This document shows, piece after piece, positions 1 through 46,234 of a DNA stretch of 46,234 nt. Each line of letters begins with the position of its first letter. Position 1 is the first letter of the stretch. The translations under genes and the position numbers were made by a program. This stretch comes from a virus (taxonomy: Duplodnaviria; Heunggongvirae; Uroviricota; Caudoviricetes), in IMG/VR virus record IMGVR_UViG_2718218309_000006. One strand, written 5' to 3'. The notes under the pieces are model-generated. The model was given only the letters and a program-made list of their open reading frames with translations, was not told where the DNA came from and ran no database searches.

Positions 1-963
1 GTGCAAAAGAATGGCGATACCTTGTCCGGTGGGCTTACTTTTGAAAACGACTCAATCCTTGCCTGGATTAGAAATACTGACTGGGCAAAGATTGGTTTTA
101 AAAATAATGCCGACAGCGACACTGATTCATACATGTGGTTTGAAACAGGCGACAACGGCAATGAATATTTCAAATGGAGAAGCCGCCAGAGCACCACAAC
201 AAAAGACCTGATGACTCTTAAATGGGATGCTTTGTCTGTCCTTGTTAAAGCCCTTTTCAGCAGTGAAGTAAAAATATCGACAGTCAATGCACTGAGGATA
301 TTTAATTCATCTTTTGGTGCTATTTTTCGTCGTTCTGAAGAATGCCTGCATATCATCCCTACACGAGAGAATGAGGGAGAAAATGGTGATATAGGGCCAC
401 TACGCCCCTTTACGCTTAATCTCAGAACTGGTCGGATAAGCATGGGGCATGGTCTTGATGTTACAGGGGATATATTTGCAAACCGTTTTGCAATTAACAG
501 TAGTACCGGCATGTGGATTCATATGCGTGACCAGAATGTTATTTTGGGACGCAATGCGGTATCCACCGATGGTGCGCAGGCATTACTTCGTCAGGACCAC
601 GCTGATCGCAAATTTATGATTGGTGGACTGGGGAATAAGCAATTTGGCATCTACATGATTAATAACTCAAGGACAGCCAATGGCACCGATGGTCAGGCGT
701 ACATGGACAACAATGGCAACTGGCTTTGCGGTGCGCAAGTTATTCCCGGCAATTATGGTAATTTTGACTCACGTTATGTGAGAGATGTCCGACTTGGTAC
801 ACGTGTTGTTCAGACTATGCAAAAAGGCGTGATGTATGAGAAATCAGGTCATGCAATTACGGGGCTTGGCATTATCGGTGCAGTTGATGGCGATGATCCG
901 GCAGTATTCAGACCAATACAAAAATACATCAATGGCACATGGTATAACGTCGTACAGGTGTAA
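1..963 (+). CDS. Side tail fibre C-terminal variable domain, alternative copy (stf'), 5'-truncated by window edge
   Basis: Ends ...INGTWYNVVQV like the minus-strand stf C-terminus (...INGTWYNAGSI); starts QKNGDTLSGG, similar to QKNQNGADIPG that follows the gix-like site in stf; followed by a tfa gene. Confidence 0.6.
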   Translation: MQKNGDTLSGGLTFENDSILAWIRNTDWAKIGFKNNADSDTDSYMWFETGDNGNEYFKWRSRQSTTTKDLMTLKWDALSVLVKALFSSEVKISTVNALRIFNSSFGAIFRRSEECLHIIPTRENEGENGDIGPLRPFTLNLRTGRISMGHGLDVTGDIFANRFAINSSTGMWIHMRDQNVILGRNAVSTDGAQALLRQDHADRKFMIGGLGNKQFGIYMINNSRTANGTDGQAYMDNNGNWLCGAQVIPGNYGNFDSRYVRDVRLGTRVVQTMQKGVMYEKSGHAITGLGIIGAVDGDDPAVFRPIQKYINGTWYNVVQV

Positions 964-966
964 TTT

Positions 967-1494
967 ATGCAGCATTTAAAAAATATTAAGTCTGGAAATC
1001 CAAAAACAAAAGAACAATATCAGCTAACAAAGAATTTTGATGTTATCTGGTTATGGTCCGAAGACGGAAAAAACTGGTATGAGGAAGTGAAAAACTTTCA
1101 GCCAGACACAATAAAGATTGTTTACGATGCAAATAATATTATTGTCGCCATCACCAAAGATGCCTCCACGCTTAACCCTGAAGGTTATAGCGTCGTTGAG
1201 GTTCCAGATATTACAGCCAACCGCTGCGCTGATGATTCCGGTAAGTGGATGTTTAGGGACGGAGCTGTGGTTAAACGGATTTATACGGCAGACGAGCAAC
1301 AACAACAGGCCGAATCACAAAAGGCCGCATTGCTTTCCGAAGCTGAATCAGTCATCCAACCGCTGGAACGCGCTGTCAGGCTGAATATGGCAACAGACGA
1401 GGAACGCACACGACTGGAAGCATGGGAACGCTACAGTGTTCTGGTCAGCCGTGTGGATACGGCAAATCCTGAATGGCCACAAAAACCAGAGTAA
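967..1494 (+). CDS. tfa: Tail fibre assembly protein, alternative copy (tfa')
   Basis: 175 aa; about 60 percent identical by eye to the minus-strand Tfa ([22 protein letters not shown]...). Confidence 0.8.
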
Positions 1495-1499
1495 AAATT

Positions 1500-1519
1500 A
1501 AGGCCCGATAGCGGGCCTT
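1500..1519. terminator. Hairpin between convergent tfa genes (AAGGCCCG-ATAG-CGGGCCTT)
   Basis: Perfect 8-bp stem, 4-nt loop, A/T-rich flanks; sits between two convergent ORFs. Confidence 0.5.
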
Positions 1520-1522
1520 CTC

Positions 1523-2056
1523 TCATTCTGGTTGTTCGGGAAACGTTACTGGCAGGCCGGAAGTGTCTGTAGATTCGACTTTCTGCGCATAGAGCATCCA
1601 CTCGGTTAATTTTTGTTTATTCTCGTCGGAAATGATGCCCAGCCGTAGCTGTGAGTCCCATAGCTGGGTTTTATCCCTGACAAGTTGCAACAGGCTTTGC
1701 TTTTCATTTTCCGCTTGTTGCCTCTGCTCTTCCTCGGTATAAGTTCGCTTTATCACTACGCCATCTTTGAACATCCATTTCCCCGAAATATCAGCCCGGC
1801 GATTTGCTGTAATATCAGGTAATTCAACGACGCTTGCACCCTCTGGATTAATTGCTGAAACATCCTTTTCAATACAAATAATAACGCCGTTATGGTCATA
1901 GACCATTTTCAAAGTGTCTGGCTGGAAATTCTTTTGTTCCTCATACCAGTTTTTTCCATCATCTGAATAAAGCCATTTGATGTTAAATTGCTTTGTTAGC
2001 TGGTATTGCTCTTTTGTTTTAGGGTTGCCAGCAGTAATGTTTTTTAAGTGCATCAT
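1523..2056 (-). CDS. tfa: Tail fibre assembly protein Tfa
   Basis: 177 aa, gp38/Tfa-like; immediately downstream of stf (stop TAA, 2 nt, ATG). Confidence 0.85.
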   Translation of the reverse strand: MMHLKNITAGNPKTKEQYQLTKQFNIKWLYSDDGKNWYEEQKNFQPDTLKMVYDHNGVIICIEKDVSAINPEGASVVELPDITANRRADISGKWMFKDGVVIKRTYTEEEQRQQAENEKQSLLQLVRDKTQLWDSQLRLGIISDENKQKLTEWMLYAQKVESTDTSGLPVTFPEQPE

Positions 2057-2058
2057 CG

Positions 2059-4896
2059 TTAAATACTCCCCGCGTTATACCACGTCCCATTAATGCAATA
2101 CTGAATTGGCCTTGCCTGAGTTGTATCAATTAATTCATCACGGTTTCCGTTAACTGAACCCGTAACGACATAACCTGACCTGTCAGACCAGCCGGGGCCT
2201 TTCCATGTCTGAACAGATGACAGACCGCCAAGGCGAATACCTGTAATAAACCTTGAGTTACATTCTGCCTGCGTATATGCACCAACATCCCCCGCAGAGG
2301 GTTTGCGTGTTGTGGTGTAAAACTCTGACCAGTTAGCTTCAAAGCCATAACCATCACGCGCTGAACGATAAAAAATACCGCCGTTCCTGTAATTCACGCG
2401 GAACTGTACAGCAGGGCAACTCCCCGCATTCATATTGAAGTGGAGGATTAATGTCGATGCACCACTGATATCTGCATCATAAACACCGCTATTCCAGTTC
2501 CAGCCAACAGCTTTATCATTTGCGACCCTGCGTCCTGTTTGCCCTAAAGCAAATGCAGGCTGCTGGTTTTTCGTGTTGTAGTCTCGTCGCCAGCCAGGAG
2601 CGTAAGCATCACCATGATTAATATAAGTGAATTGAGCGTTAGTAATTCCGCCACCGCTGGACGTGCTCGGCGTAGTAACGCGTATGGTCATTGCGCCGCG
2701 AGTGCCAATAACTTCCACCACAGCACCTGCAAGACAAATATTTCCGCAACCTGTATCTGTAATAACCTTATTATTTGCATAAGCCCATGAGCCTTTGCAC
2801 ATCCAGTAAGGATGGTTAAATGCCCCCTGACTCTCCAGCCACGAAATAAATTGCGCAGTTGTCCAGACCTGACTATCGCCACCAATATTCAGCCATGCGC
2901 TATATGCGCGGCAGGCACCAATGTTTTTGGTGAAGGTATCTTTTCCCGGAATATCTGCGCCGTTCTGGTTTTTCTGTAATGCGCCAGAAGCCTGATTTAC
3001 CGTTTCCTGTAAACCGAGGTATTCGATAACGGCAGCAACGGTCGATTTCGCAAGAATATCCCGCCCGACTTTTGTCAGGGTTGCCAGGCTGGCGACATCA
3101 TTCCCCGTAAAATACGGAAACCTGTCTGCCGCAGTAGCAAGCCCGGCCAGCGCCGTCAGGGTGGCATCTTTCGGTTGCTTACCCGCAAGCGCGTTAGTCA
3201 TGGTGGTCGCAAAATTCGGGTCGTTGCCCAGCGCCGCCGCTAACTCGTTCAGCGTATTCAGTGCGTCAGGCGACGAGTCTACAAGGGCGGCAATCGCGGC
3301 CATCACATAAGCCGTACTTGCGATCTGAGTATTATTAGTACCTTTTGGCGCAGTTGGCGTTGTTGGCGTTCCGGTCAGTGCAGGACTATTTAAGGGCGCT
3401 TTCTTGTTCGTTTCATCCATTACCGCCTTAACCGCTTTTGGTGTCGCAGCCAGCGTTTCAGACGGGCTGTTAGTGGCGCTACTGAGCTGAACCACACCTT
3501 TTTTCGTCGTACTCGCATCTTCCAGAGATACGGCATCAGCAATATCCTCTGCCCGTTTTGCCGCTGTTTCGGCACGCGTTGCCGCGGATTCAGCAGCAAC
3601 TTTGCTCTGAGATGCCGCCGTCGCACTGCCAGCAGCCTCTGTTGCCTTCGTGGATGCCGTCGTGGCGCTGCCCTTCGCTGCTGACGCTTGTCTGGTCGCC
3701 TCATCTTTTGAAGCAGACGCCGATGAGGCCGATGACGACGCCGAACTGGCTGACGATGCGGCAGCCGTTTTTGAGGATTCTGCGCTGGTTTCCGACGCTT
3801 TCGCGTTCGTTTCGGATGTCTTCGCTGCGGAAGCTGACCTCGCTGCTGCGCTGGCCTGCTCAGTGGCTTCGCCAGCCTTCGTTGTGGCTGTTGAAGCGGA
3901 TGATGCGGCGCTTTCTGCCGATTTTCCGGCGGCGGTGGCACTGGCTGAGGCCTGCCCGGCACTTGTTGACGCGGCGCTGGCAGACGACGCAGCCGCTGTT
4001 TTTGAGCCTGCCGCAGCCGAGGCGCTCTGTCCCGCTGCCGTTTCAGAAGACCTGGCGTTTGTCTCAGACGTCTTTGCCGCCTTCGCGGAATTGCCTGCCG
4101 CCGTTGCCGAGGAAGCGGCACTACTGGCGCTTGATGATGCGTTCGTTTCTGATGATTTCGCTGCCTCTTTTGAGGCCGCCGCATCCCGGGCTGAGGTGGC
4201 TGCTTCTGACGCCTTCGTGGTCGCGGCGGATGCAGAAGTGGCTGCTGATTGTTGTGACGCTGCCGCATTCGTTTCTGACGTTTTCGCCGCACCGGCACTG
4301 GTAGTTGCCGCGCTTTTTGAGGACTCTGCAGCAGCAGCACTTTTTGCTGCTTCACGGGCCTTTGTCGATGCCGTTCCTGCGCTGGAAGACGCTGACTGAG
4401 CCGACGACGCGGCCTGTCCGGCTGACGTGCTGGCTGCGCGTGCTGAGCCTGCAGCATCAGTCGCATGGGTTGCCGCCTCACGGGCTGATGTGCTGGCATC
4501 GCTGGCTGACTTCTTCGCGGCTGCCGTGTTCTGTGCCACCGCGGACGCGTTACGCGCCACCTCTTCCACCATCAGCTCAAAACGGCGCAGTGCCTCCGGA
4601 CGGGCATCATCCTCCGTCATGGCACCGAGAAAATCATTCAGCGTACCGGGCCGGGAATCTTCATACACGGTGATGGTCCCGGCATGTGACGGCGGGAATC
4701 CCTCCACCAACAGAATAACGCTGTACTGCCCGTACTCAACGTCCATGCTGTAACGCCCGGCTTCATCCGGATTTTCTGAGGCCAGCGTGTTCACCACCAC
4801 CGTGGTGCTGTTACGTTTTGCTTTCAGCTGGATTGTGCAGTTCTGTACCGGTTTTCCTGTGCCGTCTTTCAGTACACCTGAAATCTTTACTGCCAT
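2059..4896 (-). CDS. stf: Side tail fibre protein Stf (constant N-terminal part lambda Stf-like, long Ala/Ser/Thr-rich repeat, Mu/P1/e14-like variable C-terminal domain)
   Basis: N-terminus MAVKISGVLKDGTGKPVQNCTIQLKAKRNSTTVVV matches lambda Stf as recalled; ORF track starts at GTG 4902, ATG at 4896 more likely. Confidence 0.9.
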   Translation of the reverse strand: MAVKISGVLKDGTGKPVQNCTIQLKAKRNSTTVVVNTLASENPDEAGRYSMDVEYGQYSVILLVEGFPPSHAGTITVYEDSRPGTLNDFLGAMTEDDARPEALRRFELMVEEVARNASAVAQNTAAAKKSASDASTSAREAATHATDAAGSARAASTSAGQAASSAQSASSSAGTASTKAREAAKSAAAAESSKSAATTSAGAAKTSETNAAASQQSAATSASAATTKASEAATSARDAAASKEAAKSSETNASSSASSAASSATAAGNSAKAAKTSETNARSSETAAGQSASAAAGSKTAAASSASAASTSAGQASASATAAGKSAESAASSASTATTKAGEATEQASAAARSASAAKTSETNAKASETSAESSKTAAASSASSASSSASSASASKDEATRQASAAKGSATTASTKATEAAGSATAASQSKVAAESAATRAETAAKRAEDIADAVSLEDASTTKKGVVQLSSATNSPSETLAATPKAVKAVMDETNKKAPLNSPALTGTPTTPTAPKGTNNTQIASTAYVMAAIAALVDSSPDALNTLNELAAALGNDPNFATTMTNALAGKQPKDATLTALAGLATAADRFPYFTGNDVASLATLTKVGRDILAKSTVAAVIEYLGLQETVNQASGALQKNQNGADIPGKDTFTKNIGACRAYSAWLNIGGDSQVWTTAQFISWLESQGAFNHPYWMCKGSWAYANNKVITDTGCGNICLAGAVVEVIGTRGAMTIRVTTPSTSSGGGITNAQFTYINHGDAYAPGWRRDYNTKNQQPAFALGQTGRRVANDKAVGWNWNSGVYDADISGASTLILHFNMNAGSCPAVQFRVNYRNGGIFYRSARDGYGFEANWSEFYTTTRKPSAGDVGAYTQAECNSRFITGIRLGGLSSVQTWKGPGWSDRSGYVVTGSVNGNRDELIDTTQARPIQYCINGTWYNAGSI
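3005..3030. other. Candidate Gin/Hin/Pin-family 26-bp crossover site (gix/pix-like) inside stf
   Basis: TTCCTGTAAACCGAGGTATTCGATAA; recalled Mu gix is TTCCTGTAAACCGAGGTTTTGGATAA; encodes junction peptide EYLGLQE on the minus strand. Confidence 0.6.
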
Positions 4897-4906
4897 ATTC
4901 ACCCCA

Positions 4907-4960: not shown

Positions 4961-5560
4961 TCAGAATTTATAACCGACACCCACGATGAAACCGTCAGTG
5001 CGCCAGTCACCACTGCCGGAGCCTTCATAAGCAATATCAATGGCCACGGATTCGGTCGGGTTAAACTGCACGCCAGCCCCCCACGCCAGAGACGTGTTGC
5101 TGTGGCGACCGTCATCACTTCCGGTCAGCACATCGTGCGTTTTCCCCTTGTTGTCAGTTACGCGAAGATAATCCCCGGAGAAAGTCGACACACGGCTGTA
5201 AGCTACACCCGCCATCGCATACGCGCTGAACCATTCATTCACGCGCACAGACGGCCCCGCCATTACGCTGAACCAGCGGTTACGAACGGAATCTTCATGC
5301 CAGCGGGTATCGCTGTAACGGGTCAGCTGGCGATTCTTGTCTCCTGCATAGCTGAATGACGTCACCAGCCCCAGTGTGTCCGTAAACTCATAACGGTATT
5401 TCACGTTAATCCCGTTCAGATCATCACTGCCGGGGACGTTCGTCGAGGCATGAAGATACCCCGCGCTCAGCGTGGACTGATGTTCAGACGCCCATGCAGG
5501 CGCACCGGATACGGCCAGACAAATGGCTGCGGACAAAATTGCTGCACAAACTTTACGCAT
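4961..5560 (-). CDS. lom: Outer membrane protein Lom (Ail/Lom family)
   Basis: 199 aa with signal peptide MRKVCAAILSAAICLAVSGAPAWA; matches lambda Lom as recalled. Confidence 0.9.
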   Translation of the reverse strand: MRKVCAAILSAAICLAVSGAPAWASEHQSTLSAGYLHASTNVPGSDDLNGINVKYRYEFTDTLGLVTSFSYAGDKNRQLTRYSDTRWHEDSVRNRWFSVMAGPSVRVNEWFSAYAMAGVAYSRVSTFSGDYLRVTDNKGKTHDVLTGSDDGRHSNTSLAWGAGVQFNPTESVAIDIAYEGSGSGDWRTDGFIVGVGYKF

Positions 5561-5630: not shown

Positions 5631-8600
5631 TCAACGAATACTGATGCCGGAAGCGGCTTTTTTGGTCACAATCACCGTACAGTCGGTGATATTGCCTGCC
5701 CCCTGATTGCCTTTCTGGAAAATCTTAAACTCCAGAGTGACGCTTCCCCTGCCACTCGGCATATCAATAACTGCACTGTAACTACCGGGAATGGCCCCTT
5801 TAGTTTCTCTGGATGCGATTAATACGCCGTTTTTGCGAACTTCAAAACCATAACCCGTGTATCGCGTGCCTCCTGGGTTATTTCCGCTCCCCGGATCGTC
5901 ATACGCTATACCGTTAAAAATAATGGGCGGAATAATAATCTGGCGGTCAAAGTTATGATCATCGCTGATGGTGACTGTAACCGTACCGTTTGGTGTTTCC
6001 GTGTTACCCCACGTACCGACTTTTTTCGGGAAGGCTTTTGATACAGCTTTAACGAAATCTCCTCTGACCTGGGTCGCCTCCAGCATGCCCTTAATCGTAC
6101 AGTTCTGGTTAATCGTGACATTGTTGAGCGTTCCTGAGTTCGCATTCACACTGCCACTGATATCCGCATTTTTCGCCGTCAGTCTCCCGTCTGATGTCAG
6201 GGAAAATGCCGGAGGATTACCGCCGCTGGTAATGGTGGGGGCCGTCAGGCGTTTCAGGAACACTTCATTCATGAATATCTGATCGCCCTGACCAACAAAC
6301 ATCGGCTTTGTGTTGCCATTCGCAGGATTAATCATCGCAATCCTGTCTGCTGCCAGCAGCACCTGACTCTGCATGCCGTCAGGGGTGTTCTCAATACCGG
6401 CACCGATACCCGCAATATAAAGGCGTCCGTCCTGCATCTGCTGCAGCTTCACTGCCCACATGCTGTTCAGGTTATTATTTGTATCAACCTGAACCTTCTG
6501 TATCTGCTGGATCGCTGCACTCTGGTCTTCCAGTTTCTTATTGACGGTCTGTGTTATTTCATTGCTGACATCCGTTATGGACGTCCTGATTTCAGTCAGG
6601 TCAGGCGCAAGCTGACCGTTATCAATCTGCGTCCACAGCTCCTGAGCCAGATGGGTTTTCCCTATCTCGCCTTTGAAAAAATCCAGATAGCCTGATGCAT
6701 CATCACTCGGCTGACCGACAGCCTCCACGAATGCCGATTTGCCAACGGTGTTCACACTGCGAACGTAAAAATAATAATCATGGCCCGGTTTGATATTGAT
6801 ACTGGCGGCTATCCAGTACAGTGCCGTACCAAGATAACGCGCGCTGGTTTCAACCTGCCTGATATCCGCAATCCGCTTTTCCGAGAACCAGAACTCAAAC
6901 TGTACCGTCGGATCATAAACCGCAAGATGCGGCGTGGCGGTTATCTGAAAATACCCCGGTGTCAGCTCAATCTGCGACGGCGCTGCCGGTGCGGCAATCC
7001 GGAACGATACCGATGCCGGATCGCCCTGCTGCCCCCACGCATTTACTGCCCGGACTGTCAGCCTGTAGTTCCCCAGCGCCAGTTGTGTGAAGCGGTATGT
7101 GGTTTCCGCCGTCCGGGCTGTGCTGACCAGCCGCTCACTGCCGTCATCCGCTGCCACGGTCAGGCGAAGCATAAAGCTCACCCCCTTCACCACCTTCGGC
7201 GTGTCCCAGCGGGCCAGTACCTGATATTCCCCGCTGTCTGCGGTGACTTCGGCAGTCAGGTGCTGCACCGCTGGCGGCGTGACACCATTCACCGTGCCGC
7301 TCTGGTCGCCGTCAAAGTGCGCCCCGTTATCCACGATGGCCTCTTTTTCCGGTACATGCTGCACGGCGGTGATGGCATACATACCGTCGTCGTTCTCACG
7401 GATACTCACGCAGCGGAACAGGCGCTGGCGCAGCGTCGGCAGCTTCAGCCCCCACACGCTGTATCCGGCAACGCCGTCAGGAACACGGCTCACTTTTACC
7501 TTCACGCCGTCGGTGACGGACTGGACCTCCACGCTGACCGGATTACCCTGACCGTCAACCAGGCTTATCAGCGTGGTACCGGAGGATGGCAGCGTGATTT
7601 CACGGTCGAGCGTCAGCGTCCGGGTCTGGCTGTTCACCGCCAGCACGCGCCCGCCGGTGCTGATACCCGCATAGTCATCATCGCAGATTTCAATGACATC
7701 CCCCGGTACATGGCGAAGCCCTTCCGCACCCACGCTGAAGTCCACGGTCTGCGTTTCCAGCAGTTCCGTTTTAATCAGCCACAGCCCGGCGCGGTGCGCC
7801 TGCCCCCGGCTGGTACAGCCAAAGGCATCCATCTTCGTGACGTTACGACCGTAACGGGCAATGGCCTGCGTATCTTCAACAAGCTCTGTCGCCGTCTCCC
7901 AGCCGTTATCCGGGTCAATCCAGTTCACCTCAACGGCATTATGGCGGTCTTTCAGGGCGCTGAAACTGTAGCGGAACGGCGCGCCATCATCCGGCATCAC
8001 CACATTACTGCGGTTATAGGCCCACACCTTATCCGACGGTCGGTCCTGCACGAACGTCAGCGTCTGCCCGTTCCATACCGGCATACAGCGCATCGCCGAG
8101 CAGAAATCACTGAGCACATCCCACGCCTTGCGCTGTGTGGTCAGGTACGCATTACAGGTGATGCGCGGCTCCGTGCCGCCAAAGCCGTCCGGCACTGACT
8201 GGTCGCAGTACTGGCCGATGACATACAGCGCCCATTTGTCCACATCCGCCGCACCAAGACGTTTTCCCATGCCGTAGCGCGGGTGGGTCAGCATATCCCA
8301 CAGACACCAGGCCATGTTGTTGCTGTATGCTGGTTTTAACGTTCCGTCCCAGATACCACTGTATTGCCGCGTCTGCGGGTTATAGTTCGACGGCACCTGC
8401 AGAATGCGCCCGCGAAGATGATAATTACGGCTCACCTGCTGGCTGCCGAACTGCTCCGAGTCCACCTGCACGCCGACCAGTGCCGTGTTCGGGTAGCCCT
8501 GTTTCACATCGATGATTTCGGTGTATGACGACCAGAGCGTTTTGTTCTGCAGCTGGTCTGTGGTGCTGTCCGGCGTCATCCTGCGCATCCGGATATTAAA

Positions 8601-9128
8601 CGGGCGCGGCGGCAGGTTATCCACCACCACCGAGGCCAGATACTGCGAGGTGGTTTTGCCCTTAATGGTGATGTCTTTTTCCGTCACCCAGCCACCATTA
8701 CGCTGTATCTGAACCAGCAGGCGGACTTCCGATGGATTCCTGTCCCCCTTTGAGGTGGTTTCCACCAGTGCCTGTACACCGAAGGTAAAGCGCAGACGGT
8801 CGATGTTTGCCGACGTGATGGTCCGGGTGATCGGCGTGTCATATTTCACTTCCGTACCCAGCACCGTCTCGGAGCCGGAGGATTCAAATCCCTCCGGCGG
8901 TGACTGCTCCTGCTCACCGGTCCGGAACACCACCGTGACGCCGGATATATTGGTATTCCCCTCACTGTCCAGCACCGGCGTACTGTTCAGCAGCACGCTT
9001 TTTAATCCGTCCACCGGACCTTCAACCGGCCCTTCGCTGATGGCATCGATCACACTCAGCAGCTGCGTGGACTTCAGGTTGTCCTTCGCTTCGCGCGGGG
9101 TATGCCCCTTACTGCTGCCTTTACCCAT
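5631..9128 (-). CDS. J: Tail tip host specificity protein J (central tail fibre)
   Basis: 1165 aa; N-terminus [45 protein letters not shown] matches lambda J as recalled; lambda J is 1132 aa. Confidence 0.95.
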
Positions 9129-32508: not shown

Positions 32509-32748
32509 TTATCTGGCGAGGATTGCTCGCGCTCTGTTGAGTATCTGGGGATATTCATGCTCGATAGAAGTAAAGCGGCCGGCTTCGCGGTGCTCCGCAA
32601 CCTGAAGTAGTGGAGTAACGTTCTGGCAGGCAGTTAACATCACATCACCTGCTCGCCATAACCAAGCACGTGCACAAAGTTTGTTATCAGTGAATTGTTT
32701 TGTGATTGGGTATTGTTGAACTGCTAGAACGAGAACGCCAGCATCCAT
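32509..32748 (-). CDS. Hypothetical small ORF, possibly a gene remnant
   Basis: 79 aa, no recognisable family; lies between the orphan ORF and the recombinase gene. Confidence 0.25.
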   Translation of the reverse strand: MDAGVLVLAVQQYPITKQFTDNKLCARAWLWRAGDVMLTACQNVTPLLQVAEHREAGRFTSIEHEYPQILNRARAILAR

Positions 32749-32859
32749 TGGCAGTCCCTATAGTAAAACCATAGCTCAGGACGCTTCGTTCAGGATAGAT
32801 AATTTTATTGTACTTACCTAACTTTCTTACTATAGCACGGTTGAAAAAGTGATTATTAC

Positions 32860-34386
32860 TCAAAAATAAACCTCACCATCAACCATATATTTGAGAGTAC
32901 TTATCGCCTGCTGGGCGGATATTGTTTTCATTAAAGGATAGTGTTTAAAAACAATGCCATTCATAAAATAGATATCACAGGTTTTATTATCTGTATTGAT
33001 TATGATTTTTTCGAATGTTTTATAGGCAAGTGTACGACATAGCTCTCGCCCATTTTTACTGGTTAAGTCAATAGCATGAAAATCACCAAGTGAACTCACC
33101 GCTTTACTCTTCAAAGTTTTTAATGATACAGAAGCCCTTCGTAATTCCTTATCTAATACTCTGATTTTTTCTGCTATAGCGGTAACTTCAGGCGCAACAG
33201 ATAATGCAGCAATTAAATTATTAATTTTCATCTGGAGCTCAATAATTTTCAACTCTAAAGTTTCATTAGCATCTTTCTTGTTTTCAACTGGTTGGATTTT
33301 ACTACAATTAAAAAGCAACTCATTAATGATATTATAATCAACCAAATCTCTCTTTATTGATGGCCTGTCACATCGATGCAGTCTTCTCATCGGACAAACA
33401 TAATAGCCATGCAAACTTCCAGATACCGCATGAACAATCATGGTATTACCACAAGCCTCGCACTTCATAACTGTTCGAAGTAGATTTATCAACATAGGAT
33501 TTTTGCTACTATTGCTAATACCAAAAGGTGCCAACCGAATTTCCTGCACAGCGTAAAACAAATCATCTGATATGACTCTGGGATAATAGCCAGCGATTTC
33601 ACTTATTCCTTTACCTCTTGCACGATATGAAGGTACGCATATACCTATCAGAGCTTTATTCGCTAATAATTTTTCAATTACAGAAGGTCCCCATGCACTT
33701 TCTTTTCCTGAGAAATTCTTTACAGCATGATCATTTAAATACTTGGCTATTGCATTCAATGAGCGCCTTTCCATCCTGAGTTTAAAAATTAGCTCAATAG
33801 TTTTCACCCTGTCGGGGTCTGGAACAAAAGCCGTTCTTTTGTCATCCAATGAGAGCCATCTCGGACAAGACGCCGTCATAATCGTGCCTGACTCCAGTGC
33901 ATCCTGCCGTTTTTTCTTCCATGATAATTTAACCCGACTTGACTTTATCTCGCTTTCTTCATTTGCCCTTTGTGCTATAAGTATGGCTTTTATTAATGAA
34001 TATGGCTCATTCAATGAGTCAATATTATAGACTGTATTATCGCAAAGAGTTATAACATCAATACCGTGATTCAAAATCAATTTCAGACGCTCAATCGCTT
34101 CACCGACTTTTTCTCTTGAAAGTCTGTCCAGACTTTCAACTAACAATGTAGTCCCTGGCAATATATAACCATGTTCTATAGCATCTAAAAATTCCGAAAA
34201 AGCTCCTGATTGTGCATGCTTTCCATTGAATGCGCTTAACCCCAAATCTTCATACGTTACGGTATCAAGGTAATAATCACTATTTACCTTTAGCCATTCA
34301 GTAATAAGCCTTCTCTGGCGGTTTAATGAATCACCAGACATCTGACCTGGTGATGAAAATCGCATATATGCTATGGCTTTTTTCAT
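32860..34386 (-). CDS. Large serine recombinase (YbcK-like)
   Basis: 508 aa; resolvase-type N-terminus AIAYMRFSSPGQ...LLVESLDRLSR, recombinase domain, Cys-rich zinc-ribbon (CEACGNTMIVH...YYVCPMRRLHRCDRP), coiled-coil C-terminus. Confidence 0.85.
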   Translation of the reverse strand: MKKAIAYMRFSSPGQMSGDSLNRQRRLITEWLKVNSDYYLDTVTYEDLGLSAFNGKHAQSGAFSEFLDAIEHGYILPGTTLLVESLDRLSREKVGEAIERLKLILNHGIDVITLCDNTVYNIDSLNEPYSLIKAILIAQRANEESEIKSSRVKLSWKKKRQDALESGTIMTASCPRWLSLDDKRTAFVPDPDRVKTIELIFKLRMERRSLNAIAKYLNDHAVKNFSGKESAWGPSVIEKLLANKALIGICVPSYRARGKGISEIAGYYPRVISDDLFYAVQEIRLAPFGISNSSKNPMLINLLRTVMKCEACGNTMIVHAVSGSLHGYYVCPMRRLHRCDRPSIKRDLVDYNIINELLFNCSKIQPVENKKDANETLELKIIELQMKINNLIAALSVAPEVTAIAEKIRVLDKELRRASVSLKTLKSKAVSSLGDFHAIDLTSKNGRELCRTLAYKTFEKIIINTDNKTCDIYFMNGIVFKHYPLMKTISAQQAISTLKYMVDGEVYF

Positions 34387-34641
34387 GGTGACACCTGCTA
34401 AAGTATGCTTTTATAAACCTTAGTGGTGAGATATGATTTTTGTTTAATTTTTATTTAAAAAGACAATTAAGGTCACATTATCTTAAATATACAACAATAA
34501 TCGTATTGCAATTTTCTTACACCATAATCCTGAAAGCACAAAAGAATGAATAAAAACTAAAGACATTAACAAAAAGCATAAAACGAGGCCCATATAAATA
34601 TACGAACCTCCATATTTTAGTCGTTTAAAAACAAATTATTT

Positions 34642-34974
34642 TTAATGTGGTGTGCTTCGTGACAATAAATTAATAACCAACACACCGGCACAAATCAACA
34701 TCATGCCTATAATGGCTGGCAGGTCCAACCGTTGGCCGAAAAATCCCCATGATAGTAAGCTAATCAGGACAATACCGACTCCTGACCAGATAGCATAAGC
34801 AATCCCTGTAGGAATATAAGCCAGCGTCTGAGCTAATAACCAGAATGATGCACAATAACAAATAATTGTACCAACAGATGGCCATAACCGTGTAAAACCT
34901 TCTGAAAACTTCATTAAGGTTGTACCAATGACCTCTGCAAGTATTGCACCACCAAGATAAATATAAGGATTCAT
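34642..34974 (-). CDS. emrE: Small multidrug resistance efflux transporter EmrE (SMR family)
   Basis: 110 aa from MNPYIYLGGAILAEVIGTTLMKFSEGFTRLWPSVGTIICYCASFWLLAQTLAYIPTGIAYAIWSGVGIV; four TM helices. Confidence 0.92.
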   Translation of the reverse strand: MNPYIYLGGAILAEVIGTTLMKFSEGFTRLWPSVGTIICYCASFWLLAQTLAYIPTGIAYAIWSGVGIVLISLLSWGFFGQRLDLPAIIGMMLICAGVLVINLLSRSTPH

Positions 34975-34989
34975 AGCATATTCTTTCCT

Positions 34990-35024
34990 GTTCAAACTGG
35001 AGAGAATTGTACTACAGTTTGAAC
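34990..35024. repeat. Perfect 10-bp inverted repeat (GTTCAAACTG / CAGTTTGAAC, 15-bp spacer) between ren and emrE
   Basis: Read directly from the sequence, just upstream of the emrE start. Confidence 0.6.
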
Positions 35025-35041
35025 TCAACTCACCTGTTTCA

Positions 35042-43549: not shown

Positions 43550-43768
43550 ATGTACTTGACACTTCAGGAGTGGAACGCACGCCAGCGACGCCCAAGAAGC
43601 CTTGAAACAGTTCGTCGATGGGTACGCGAGTGCAGGATATTCCCTCCTCCGGTTAAGGATGGAAGAGAGTATCTGTTCCACGAATCAGCGGTAAAGGTTG
43701 ACTTAAATCGACCAGTAACAGGTAGCCTTTTGAAGAGGATCAGAAATGGGAAGAAGGCGAAGTCATGA
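43550..43768 (+). CDS. xis: Excisionase Xis
   Basis: 72 aa, MYLTLQEWNARQRRPRSLETVRRWVRECRIFPPPVKDGREYLFHESAVKVDLNRP... Confidence 0.95.
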   Translation: MYLTLQEWNARQRRPRSLETVRRWVRECRIFPPPVKDGREYLFHESAVKVDLNRPVTGSLLKRIRNGKKAKS

Positions 43769-44816
43769 GCGCCGGGATTTACCCCCTAACCTTTATATAA
43801 GAAACAATGGATATTACTGCTACAGGGACCCAAGGACGGGTAAAGAGTTTGGATTAGGCAGAGACAGGCGAATCGCAATCACTGAAGCCATACAGGCCAA
43901 CATTGAGTTATTTTCAGGACACAAACACAAGCCTCTGACAGCGAGAATCAACAGTGATAATTCCGTTACGTTACATTCATGGCTTGATCGCTACGAAAAA
44001 ATCCTGGCCAGCAGAGGAATCAAGCAGAAGACACTCATAAATTACATGAGCAAAATTAAAGCAATAAGGAGGGGTCTGCCTGATGCTCCACTTGAAGACA
44101 TCACCACAAAAGAAATTGCGGCAATGCTCAATGGATACATAGACGAGGGCAAGGCGGCGTCAGCCAAGTTAATCAGATCAACACTGAGCGATGCATTCCG
44201 AGAGGCAATAGCTGAAGGCCATATAACAACAAACCCTGTCGCTGCCACTCGCGCAGCAAAATCAGAGGTAAGGAGATCAAGACTTACGGCTGACGAATAC
44301 CTGAAAATTTATCAAGCAGCAGAATCATCACCATGTTGGCTCAGACTTGCAATGGAACTGGCTGTTGTTACCGGGCAACGAGTTGGTGATTTATGCGAAA
44401 TGAAGTGGTCTGATATCGTAGATGGATATCTTTATGTCGAGCAAAGCAAAACAGGCGTAAAAATTGCCATCCCAACAGCATTGCATGTTGATGCTCTCGG
44501 AATATCAATGAAGGAAACACTTGATAAATGCAAAGAGATTCTTGGCGGAGAAACCATAATTGCATCTACTCGTCGCGAACCGCTTTCATCCGGCACAGTA
44601 TCAAGGTATTTTATGCGCGCACGAAAAGCATCAGGTCTTTCCTTCGAAGGGGATCCGCCTACCTTTCACGAGTTGCGCAGTTTGTCTGCAAGACTCTATG
44701 AGAAGCAGATAAGCGATAAGTTTGCTCAACATCTTCTCGGGCATAAGTCGGACACCATGGCATCACAGTATCGTGATGACAGAGGCAGGGAGTGGGACAA
44801 AATTGAAATCAAATAA
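43746..44816 (+). CDS. int: Integrase Int (tyrosine recombinase, lambda type)
   Basis: 356 aa, MGRRRSHERRDLPPNLYIRNNGYYCYRDPRTGKEFGLGRDRRIAITEAIQANIELFSGHK... Confidence 0.95.
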   Translation: MGRRRSHERRDLPPNLYIRNNGYYCYRDPRTGKEFGLGRDRRIAITEAIQANIELFSGHKHKPLTARINSDNSVTLHSWLDRYEKILASRGIKQKTLINYMSKIKAIRRGLPDAPLEDITTKEIAAMLNGYIDEGKAASAKLIRSTLSDAFREAIAEGHITTNPVAATRAAKSEVRRSRLTADEYLKIYQAAESSPCWLRLAMELAVVTGQRVGDLCEMKWSDIVDGYLYVEQSKTGVKIAIPTALHVDALGISMKETLDKCKEILGGETIIASTRREPLSSGTVSRYFMRARKASGLSFEGDPPTFHELRSLSARLYEKQISDKFAQHLLGHKSDTMASQYRDDRGREWDKIEIK

Positions 44817-44950: not shown

Positions 44951-46234
44951 GTGAACACATTTTCAGTTTCCCGTCTGGCGCTGGCATTGGCTTTTGGCGT
45001 GACGCTGACCGCCTGTAGCTCAACCCCGCCCGATCAACGTCCTTCTGATCAAACCGCGCCTGGTACCTCTTCTCGCCCGATTCTGTCGGCAAAAGAAGCG
45101 CAGAATTTCGATGCTCAACACTATTTTGCATCCCTGACACCAGGTGCTGCAGCGTGGAATCCTTCCCCGATTACCCTGCCTGCGCAACCTGACTTTGTTG
45201 TCGGCCCGGCGGGCACTCAAGGTGTAACGCATACCACGATTCAGGCGGCGGTAGATGCGGCAATTATCAAGCGTACCAACAAGCGCCAGTATATTGCCGT
45301 GATGCCTGGTGAGTATCAGGGAACGGTATATGTCCCTGCCGCTCCGGGTGGAATTACTCTGTACGGTACAGGTGAAAAACCGATTGATGTGAAGATTGGG
45401 CTTTCCCTTGATGGTGGCATGAGCCCTGCCGACTGGCGTCACGACGTCAACCCGCGCGGCAAATATATGCCAGGTAAACCAGCGTGGTATATGTACGATA
45501 GCTGCCAGAGCAAACGCAGCGACAGTATCGGTGTTCTCTGCTCTGCGGTCTTCTGGTCACAAAACAATGGCCTGCAACTGCAAAATCTGACCATCGAAAA
45601 CACGCTGGGCGATAGCGTAGATGCAGGTAACCATCCGGCGGTGGCACTGCGTACTGATGGTGACCAGGTACAGATTAACAACGTTAACATTCTCGGTCGT
45701 CAGAACACCTTCTTTGTCACCAACAGCGGTGTGCAGAACCGTCTGGAAACCAACCGTCAGCCGCGTACGCTGGTGACCAACAGCTACATTGAAGGGGATG
45801 TGGATATCGTTTCTGGTCGCGGCGCAGTGGTGTTCGATAACACCGAATTCCGCGTGGTGAACTCACGTACTCAGCAAGAAGCGTATGTGTTTGCACCGGC
45901 TACGCTGTCCAACATTTACTACGGTTTCCTCGCCGTAAACAGCCGTTTCAATGCTTTCGGTGATGGTGTGGCGCAACTGGGCCGCTCGCTGGATGTTGAT
46001 GCCAATACCAACGGTCAGGTGGTGATCCGTGATAGCGCCATCAACGAAGGTTTTAACACGGCGAAACCGTGGGCCGATGCGGTGATCTCTAATCGTCCGT
46101 TTGCGGGTAATACCGGCAGCGTAGATGATAACGACGAAATACAGCGCAATCTGAATGACACTAACTACAACCGCATGTGGGAATACAATAACCGCGGCGT
46201 GGGTAGTAAAGTGGTTGCAGAGGCGAAGAAGTAA
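44951..46234 (+). CDS. ybhC: Host gene ybhC (lipoprotein, pectinesterase-like acyl-CoA thioesterase)
   Basis: 427 aa, lipoprotein signal MNTFSVSRLALALAFGVTLTAC; ybhC flanks the lambda attachment site on the gal side in E. coli as recalled. Confidence 0.85.
   Translation: MNTFSVSRLALALAFGVTLTACSSTPPDQRPSDQTAPGTSSRPILSAKEAQNFDAQHYFASLTPGAAAWNPSPITLPAQPDFVVGPAGTQGVTHTTIQAAVDAAIIKRTNKRQYIAVMPGEYQGTVYVPAAPGGITLYGTGEKPIDVKIGLSLDGGMSPADWRHDVNPRGKYMPGKPAWYMYDSCQSKRSDSIGVLCSAVFWSQNNGLQLQNLTIENTLGDSVDAGNHPAVALRTDGDQVQINNVNILGRQNTFFVTNSGVQNRLETNRQPRTLVTNSYIEGDVDIVSGRGAVVFDNTEFRVVNSRTQQEAYVFAPATLSNIYYGFLAVNSRFNAFGDGVAQLGRSLDVDANTNGQVVIRDSAINEGFNTAKPWADAVISNRPFAGNTGSVDDNDEIQRNLNDTNYNRMWEYNNRGVGSKVVAEAKK

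Follow-up and report, generated by a model that had tools for sequence, protein, structure and literature searches.

The window analyzed here is the whole of a 46,234-nucleotide stretch of viral DNA (IMG/VR record IMGVR_UViG_2718218309_000006), the left end of which carries a side tail fiber gene (stf) and its chaperone gene (tfa) facing a second, convergent pair, stf′ and tfa′. A crossover site of the gix type lies inside stf, and the original prediction was of an invertible tail fiber switch. The features concerned are listed below. Those to the left of window position 1, which have negative coordinates, were read in relatives of 99.2–100% identity; the reference among these is STEC309 (locus L001), in which window position 1 corresponds to position 6001.

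-431 to -333: 3′-fragment of a lambda-type tfa gene (relatives; outside the window)
about -340 to -105, minus strand: gin-like invertase stub of 79 codons (relatives; outside the window)
-50 to -25, inverted: partner crossover site TTATCTAAAACCTCGGTTTACAGGAA (L001 5951-5976)
1-963, plus strand: stf′, an open reading frame (ORF) for the silent alternative tail fiber tip, equivalent to the variable part of Mu S
967-1494, plus strand: tfa′, silent chaperone of 175 amino acids, equivalent to Mu U; Pfam Caudo_TAP, E 7e-38
1500-1519: GC-rich hairpin AAGGCCCGCTATCGGGCCTT with an 8-bp stem (6 of its pairs GC) and, on the minus strand, a T-run, in the 28-nucleotide gap between tfa and tfa′
1523-2056, minus strand: tfa, expressed chaperone of 177 amino acids, equivalent to Mu U′; Pfam Caudo_TAP, E 2e-36
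2059-4896, minus strand: stf, 945 amino acids, starting with ATG at 4896 or, alternatively, GTG at 4902; Pfam phage_tail_N, E 1e-71
2059-3003, minus strand: variable C-terminal tip of stf, currently expressed, equivalent to Mu S′; contiguous and in frame with the constant part
3004-3029: gix-type 26-mer TTCCTGTAAACCGAGGTATTCGATAA inside stf, with half-sites TTCCTGTAAACC and TTATCGAATACC and the core dinucleotide GA at 3016-3017
3030-4896, minus strand: constant N-terminal part of stf, consisting of the phage_tail_N domain and then a long Ala/Ser-rich region

The ORF list and the Pfam matches bear out the four genes and the hairpin between the two tfa genes that had been claimed from the sequence. 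Each variable tip is followed by its own tail fiber assembly chaperone and the two cassettes are convergent; the chaperones, which are 57% identical to one another, converge upon the central hairpin, which probably serves as the terminator for whichever cassette is being read. In the window stf′ is without its first ~8 codons and the crossover site, both of which fall just outside. It also possesses no N-terminal part, and a TAA three codons ahead of ..LGLQETVN.., within the outer half of the partner site, closes its frame in the relatives. The possibility that stf′ is a separate complete gene, which had been put forward as grounds for abandoning the prediction, was ruled out on these two observations. 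At window position 1, the GTG encodes a Val within the fused ORF, and the AGGA found 6 nucleotides upstream of it is probably there by chance. Gene boundaries seem to have set the limits of the window, and this would account for its start at a GTG within stf′, a short way beyond the crossover site.

The 26-mer TTCCTGTAAACCGAGGTATTCGATAA occurs once in the window, with no copy expected on the basis of 100 shuffles, and contributes ..VIEYLGLQETVN.. to stf when read on the minus strand. It had been correctly placed at the junction of the constant and variable parts of the gene, the coordinates (3005-3030) being one position too high. In Mu, gixL and gixR are identical (TTATCCAAAACCTCGGTTTACAGGAA), and their centers coincide with the boundaries of the G segment annotated in the Mu record. 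The window 26-mer differs from this sequence at only two of the 26 positions and is a genuine member of the gix/hix/pix family to which it had been assigned. The inverted partner site, anticipated just upstream of the window, is present at -50 to -25 in all close relatives examined; it shows two mismatches to the window site and one to Mu gix, shares the GA core with the former, and is presumably to be found in the window's own genome as well. The two sites have in common a perfect repeat of 25 nucleotides, which lies inside an imperfect repeat of ~37 nucleotides.

The middle of stf (window 3400-4500) is made up of Ala/Ser/Thr-rich repeats, and long spurious ORFs are found there in other frames (e.g., 3420-4499 and 3650-4399). 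This part of the shaft also diverges between near-identical prophages, the identity being 99.9% and then giving way to many mismatches beyond position 7200 of locus L002.

Homology to the Mu G segment and the truncated invertase gene

Colinearity with the Mu G segment extends over 3114 nucleotides, at 87.5% nucleotide identity. The proposed assignment to the type of the Mu G, P1 C, and e14 P segments is supported. At the protein level, the expressed Stf tip is 96.5% identical to the variable part of Mu S′ and the expressed chaperone 97.2% identical to U′, while the silent Stf′ and Tfa′ show 69.8% identity to the variable part of Mu S and 93.7% to Mu U, respectively. Relative to Mu, the window is therefore in the G(-) state. 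The two systems share the gene order S-U/U′-S′, chaperones of 175 and 177 residues, the 28-nucleotide central spacer, the 26-bp sites (with one or two differences), and the 5′-end of the invertase gene (93–97% identical). They differ in that the carrier here is a lambda-like siphovirus, in which Stf is 945 residues long compared with 505 for Mu S, the shaft upstream of the site is not Mu-like save for a patch of 76.7% identity, the S-type tip is only 70% identical, and gin is reduced to a dead stub of 79 codons.

The same cassette is present at 89–94% nucleotide identity in Mu, D108, SfMu, P1, P7, D6, and the P2-like phage P88. A P2-like prophage of the O111:H8 strain 8E carries a near-identical version (97% for the junction query; 90.9% for the whole segment) beside an intact invertase gene of 195 codons. 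This prophage, P88, and P1/P7, where the cassette is the C segment and the enzyme Cin, differ from the present case in being myoviruses with a full-length invertase (195 residues) and another fiber N-terminus. In the P2-like prophage the resemblance extends into the shaft, at 92% identity over ~470 nucleotides beside the site, from which we surmise that a phage of this type is the best candidate donor.

Upstream of the partner site, the relatives possess a short ORF on the minus strand annotated as a “recombinase family protein,” followed by the tfa 3′-fragment and a GGDEF diguanylate cyclase gene. The short ORF corresponds to codons 1-79 of a Gin/Pin-type invertase, including the catalytic-serine motif VRVSTNDQ; codon 65 is a TGA, and the reading frame runs on into the last ~30 codons of tfa. 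Of the original tfa, no more than the 3′ ~33 codons are left. The fusion occurs in STEC309, 101EVA, and 14 further loci, that is, in every relative examined that has this stf and prophage context. In these relatives the small serine invertase gene of the segment (~185–195 codons when intact, with catalytic and DNA-binding domains) is thus incomplete, and in this respect the prediction of an invertase of 180–200 amino acids just upstream was not supported. By analogy, window position 1 would be expected to be preceded by the same fusion, in which the stub, its codon 65 a TGA, runs into ..EAWKKYRVLLNRV... 

Compared with the 5′-end of gin, the stub shows 93% identity; its nucleotides 1-190 are about 97% identical to Mu gin, 115 nucleotides of this being a perfect match; past nucleotide ~195 the sequence is Pin-like (MRHLVVLV) and not Gin-like. 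In one haplotype (L071/L072) codon 65 is TGG rather than TGA (stub and tfa fragment at L001 5570-5920, about 80–430 bp upstream of the window). This would allow a chimera of ~110 amino acids possessing the catalytic serine without the dimer helix or the DNA-binding domain.

The tfa fragment and the DNA on the GGDEF side are 99.2% identical to those of cassette-free strains, in which GGDEF, a full-length tfa of 194 codons, and stf make up a locus of the ancestral type. On the other side, L001 8991-9502 (window 2991-3502) is 92.4% identical at the nucleotide level to the tail fiber gene of a P2-like prophage, the homology then stopping ~470 nucleotides past the site. These boundaries suggest that the cassette was imported from a Mu/P2-like phage as a block of ~3.8 kb. 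The block would have comprised the last ~160 codons of the shaft (3030-3502), the segment, and the first ~240 nucleotides (~79 codons) of the invertase gene, and would have taken the place of the 3′-end of stf and of two-thirds of the resident tfa, counted from its 5′-end. The right-hand junction of the block lies at microhomology of a few bases. If so, the invertible tip cassette of Mu, P1, and P2-like phages has moved as a unit into a lambda-type side tail fiber.

The module, in the order stf shaft, site, segment, site, and gin stub fused to the 3′-end of tfa, was also encountered elsewhere. In Rac-like prophages (L066, L067, L069, and L075) it lies directly beside an intact, convergent pinR, and both orientations are found in this context; in another context (L074) it lies beside a methyltransferase gene. 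The stfR-tfaR-pinR arrangement of the K-12 Rac prophage may be related to such a module. Counting att-lambda, the module is thus present in at least three contexts, which suggests that the invertase-less form is being stably maintained and is not decaying.

Orientation of the segment in related genomes

The position of the site at the constant/variable junction of the fiber gene is such that inversion supplies an alternative C-terminus in frame: when L001 was inverted in silico at both cores, the stf shaft read directly into stf′, giving a product of 959 amino acids. A 1100-nucleotide query over the predicted junction yielded 100% matches in several complete genomes. One of the natural isomers, PEC1003, corresponds to the in-silico inverted STEC309 with five mismatches in ~4.1 kb, and has the same locus on the bio side and the same stub. 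The 959-residue ORF, ending in YINGTWYNVVQV, is intact in all eight of the natural inverted isomers that were fetched. In these isomers the outer half-sites stay with the flanks while the inner flanks move, and this places the exchange within the 25-nucleotide identical stretch ACCTCGGTTTACAGGAAACGGTAAA, which contains the core.

Orientations were counted with 1001-nucleotide queries spanning the end of the GGDEF gene, the tfa fragment, the stub, the site, and the first 324 nucleotides of the segment. Among complete genomes with stub and flank, 63 have the orientation of the window and 27 the opposite one; both of the forms that had been forecast thus exist, as a difference between strains. 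The loci in IMG/VR are divided about 25 to 23. To this can be added a comparison of haplotypes, for which 12 loci were placed in a common orientation (4031 nucleotides, with 22 variable sites). Three haplotypes were each found in both orientations, namely L070 (parental) and L002 (inverted), L068 with L076 and L077, and L071 with L072; L070 and L002 are identical at all 22 of the variable sites. Since the same haplotypes are present in both orientations, at least three independent inversions have taken place after the stub was formed, without a cis-encoded invertase.

The annotation of the inverted isomers deserves comment. In L002, L003, and L072-L077, the Prokaryotic Genome Annotation Pipeline (PGAP)/RefSeq describes stf as “incomplete, missing C-terminus,” as a pseudogene, or as split in two, and the silent tips are labeled as truncated “phage tail protein” or “hypothetical protein,” an artifact of annotating invertible coding segments. 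For genome work this means that flipped isomers are called pseudogenes despite an intact ORF of 959 codons, and that a host-range prediction made from a single assembly captures one of two states.

The possible source of the recombinase

When Gin, PinE, PinR, and a P2-like invertase were compared with the 46-kb window by tblastn, no Gin/Pin-type invertase was found. The only serine recombinase is YbcK, which the prophage carries besides its tyrosine integrase:

32860-34386, minus strand: ybcK, large serine recombinase of 508 amino acids; Resolvase (Pfam E 9e-19), Recombinase, and Zn-ribbon
43746-44816: tyrosine integrase

The explanation that we favor, and hold to be probable, is that window 1-3029 represents the body and one end of a ~3.05-kb invertible segment of the Mu G type in stf, which has no invertase in cis and is flipped in trans. 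Enzymes of the Gin family act as dimers at two sites, are activated through a Fis-bound enhancer, cleave by means of a serine at the 2-bp core, and rotate the strands by 180 degrees (PMC3575834, PMC3798978). In the present case, a member of the Gin/Cin/Pin/Hin family would break each 26-bp site at its central GA and reseal the DNA after strand rotation. The flip would exchange the variable tip and the matching chaperone on the constant Stf shaft, which is presumably read from the late transcript; an S′/U′-like pair would be expressed now and an S/U-like pair after the flip, and transcription would stop at the central hairpin whichever pair is being read. As in Mu, such an exchange would be expected to alter the lipopolysaccharide receptor specificity of the side tail fibers.

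The prophage would thus keep the two sites and, probably, a Fis-dependent enhancer within the surviving 5′-part of the invertase gene, and would itself have no invertase. The Fis sites for Gin are reported to be located within gin itself, ~550 bp ahead of the start of mom (PMC3378877), and the presumed enhancer region therefore falls in that part of the gene which the stub retains. The enzyme would come from co-resident elements, be they P2-like or Mu-like prophages, e14 (PinE), or Rac and Qin (PinR and PinQ). There is precedent for activity of this kind, as PinQ, PinR, and PinE invert the P segment of e14, the last of these also inverts Mu G, and the Hin segment is acted on by Fin (PMC12529663). 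Candidate genes are widespread: of 5426 complete genomes, 3754 contain a Gin/Pin-type sequence, which in 1122 covers at least 80% of the gene length, and pinR/Q is present in 2750. We infer that flipping has continued by means of invertases supplied in trans, and that in the window's host the segment would be flipped, if at all, by a trans-acting enzyme. Apart from the enhancer, the function of which is a prediction, every feature of a Din-type system that was looked for is in place except an intact invertase gene.

Several observations weigh against this explanation. Differences in orientation between strains are a record of past flips and not of current activity. The counts of Gin/Pin and pinR/Q genes cover all 5426 complete genomes taken together, and the best match to the window over 25 kb is at 99.2% identity. 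The outer half-site on the stf side has ATACC beside the core where Mu gix has AAACC, and the stub contains only one simple Fis-like motif, GAAGATAAATTAAGC.

In Mu, in e14, and in the P2-like prophage with the near-identical cassette, the invertase gene lies beside the segment, and as this is the usual layout and the window's own upstream DNA is represented here by that of relatives, one might suppose that a complete, functional Gin/Pin invertase is encoded immediately upstream and that the switch is self-contained. The fused 79-codon stub of every relative examined, and the 90 genomes that match the diagnostic GGDEF-stub-site query, make this improbable. The lack of an invertase in cis would also suit a frozen relic, in which inversion no longer occurs in this host and the two orientations stem from old events or from recombination between prophages; moreover, a comparison of one strain with another cannot show ongoing switching. 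We nevertheless regard a relic as unlikely, somewhat less so than an upstream invertase, given that three near-identical haplotypes occur in both orientations (one pair being the same at 22 of 22 sites), that both cassettes and both chaperones keep intact ORFs and the sites the same core, and that Gin/Pin and PinR/Q genes are common in E. coli. The haplotypes and the four intact ORFs speak against a relic for the lineage; in this particular host, the segment may be one.

Exchange might also come about with no invertase at all, by RecA-dependent homologous recombination between the short inverted repeats, for which the 25-nucleotide perfect repeat within about 37 nucleotides of imperfect repeat could serve as substrate. 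A repeat of 25 nucleotides is close to the minimum length for RecA-dependent exchange, yet at least three independent events are seen in 12 loci. Furthermore, the repeat is close to perfect as a gix site and its core matches, and inversion in trans by Pin-family enzymes is documented (PMC12529663), so we consider the RecA route very improbable. Least credible of all is a role for YbcK (32860-34386) in flipping the segment. Its Resolvase catalytic domain and a weak match to the PHROG “DNA invertase” speak for such a role, but its Recombinase and Zn-ribbon domains are the architecture of large serine integrases and not that of the small Gin-type enzymes, on which grounds it was ruled out. Moreover, tblastn revealed no resemblance of YbcK to Gin, PinE, or PinR at E≤1e-3. 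The gene is the conserved ybcK of the DLP12 type, which adjoins emrE; its region (window 32700-34500) is present in 1401 complete E. coli genomes.

Close parallels are also found in other lambdoid elements. The P segment of e14 in K-12 resides in a defective lambdoid prophage, has convergent stf and tfa genes and sites of the same family, and is flipped by the recombinases of other prophages (PMC12529663; PMC4272514). It differs in having kept its own PinE, in its 1.8-kb length and unrelated tips, and in producing no virions, whereas the prophage described here looks complete and lacks an invertase. The lambdoid phage LLS, compared here by its description, has two opposed fiber genes and predicted switching of the side tail fiber tip; unlike the present prophage it has an invertase gene, and its fibers were reported to be unrelated to those of known phages (PMC12315714). 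The Hin/H system of Salmonella shares a small serine invertase dependent on Fis and an enhancer, as well as trans action by Fin of prophage Fels-2 (PMC12529663, PMC3798978), but it flips a flagellin promoter instead of exchanging fiber-coding sequence, and has kept its own invertase.

Lambdoid switches are thus already known from e14 (PMC4272514) and LLS (PMC12315714), as are the action of invertases in trans and the textbook mechanism. What is new is limited to a Mu G homologue in a lambda-type Stf at att-lambda, which is kept without an invertase, occurs in several contexts, and switches on evolutionary timescales. On balance we lean toward an orphan host-range switch, that is, a viable-looking prophage without an invertase whose virion tip is set by the invertases of unrelated co-resident prophages. 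Were this true, the receptor choice of one prophage would hang on the recombinases of other prophages in the same cell.

The surrounding prophage

The remainder of the window looks like an apparently complete lambda-like prophage of E. coli. Beyond stf are lom (4961-5560) and J (5631-9128), and the rest encodes tape measure, capsid, portal, terminase, endolysin, P, O, a CI-type repressor, and an integrase of 356 amino acids. A gene for an EmrE-like small multidrug resistance transporter (34642-35028, minus strand) adjoins ybcK in the nin region, as it does in the K-12 prophage DLP12.

Over window 1-3200, many complete E. coli chromosomes show 99.97–100% identity. The best match over 25 kb (window 1-25000; megablast against complete E. 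coli genomes) is to strain 101EVA (L004), at 99.2%. A 51-mer scan of IMG/VR matched 56 loci. In the GTDB species-representative genomes, there was no exact match to the first 50 nucleotides of the window or to a degenerate 34-mer made up of gix plus flank (TTATCNAANACCTCGGTTTACAGGAAACGGTAAA); despite this the cassette is common in complete E. coli genomes and phages.

The lambda-type order J, lom, stf (with phage_tail_N), and tfa is present at the bio-proximal end of the prophage, where the flanks, as read in relatives, consist of the GGDEF diguanylate cyclase gene followed by ybhB and bioA. From this flank it follows that the prophage of the relatives is at att-lambda, in the orientation of lambda itself. 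In each of the att-lambda relatives, the tfa remnant and ybhB are separated by the GGDEF gene (L001 4165-5496, outside the window). It occupies the same position in strains whose prophage is without the invertible cassette, and may be prophage-borne cargo. At the other end of the window, the last ORF (44951-46234; 427 amino acids) follows the integrase gene and ends exactly at the window end; its size and position indicate that it is probably host ybhC, beyond attL.

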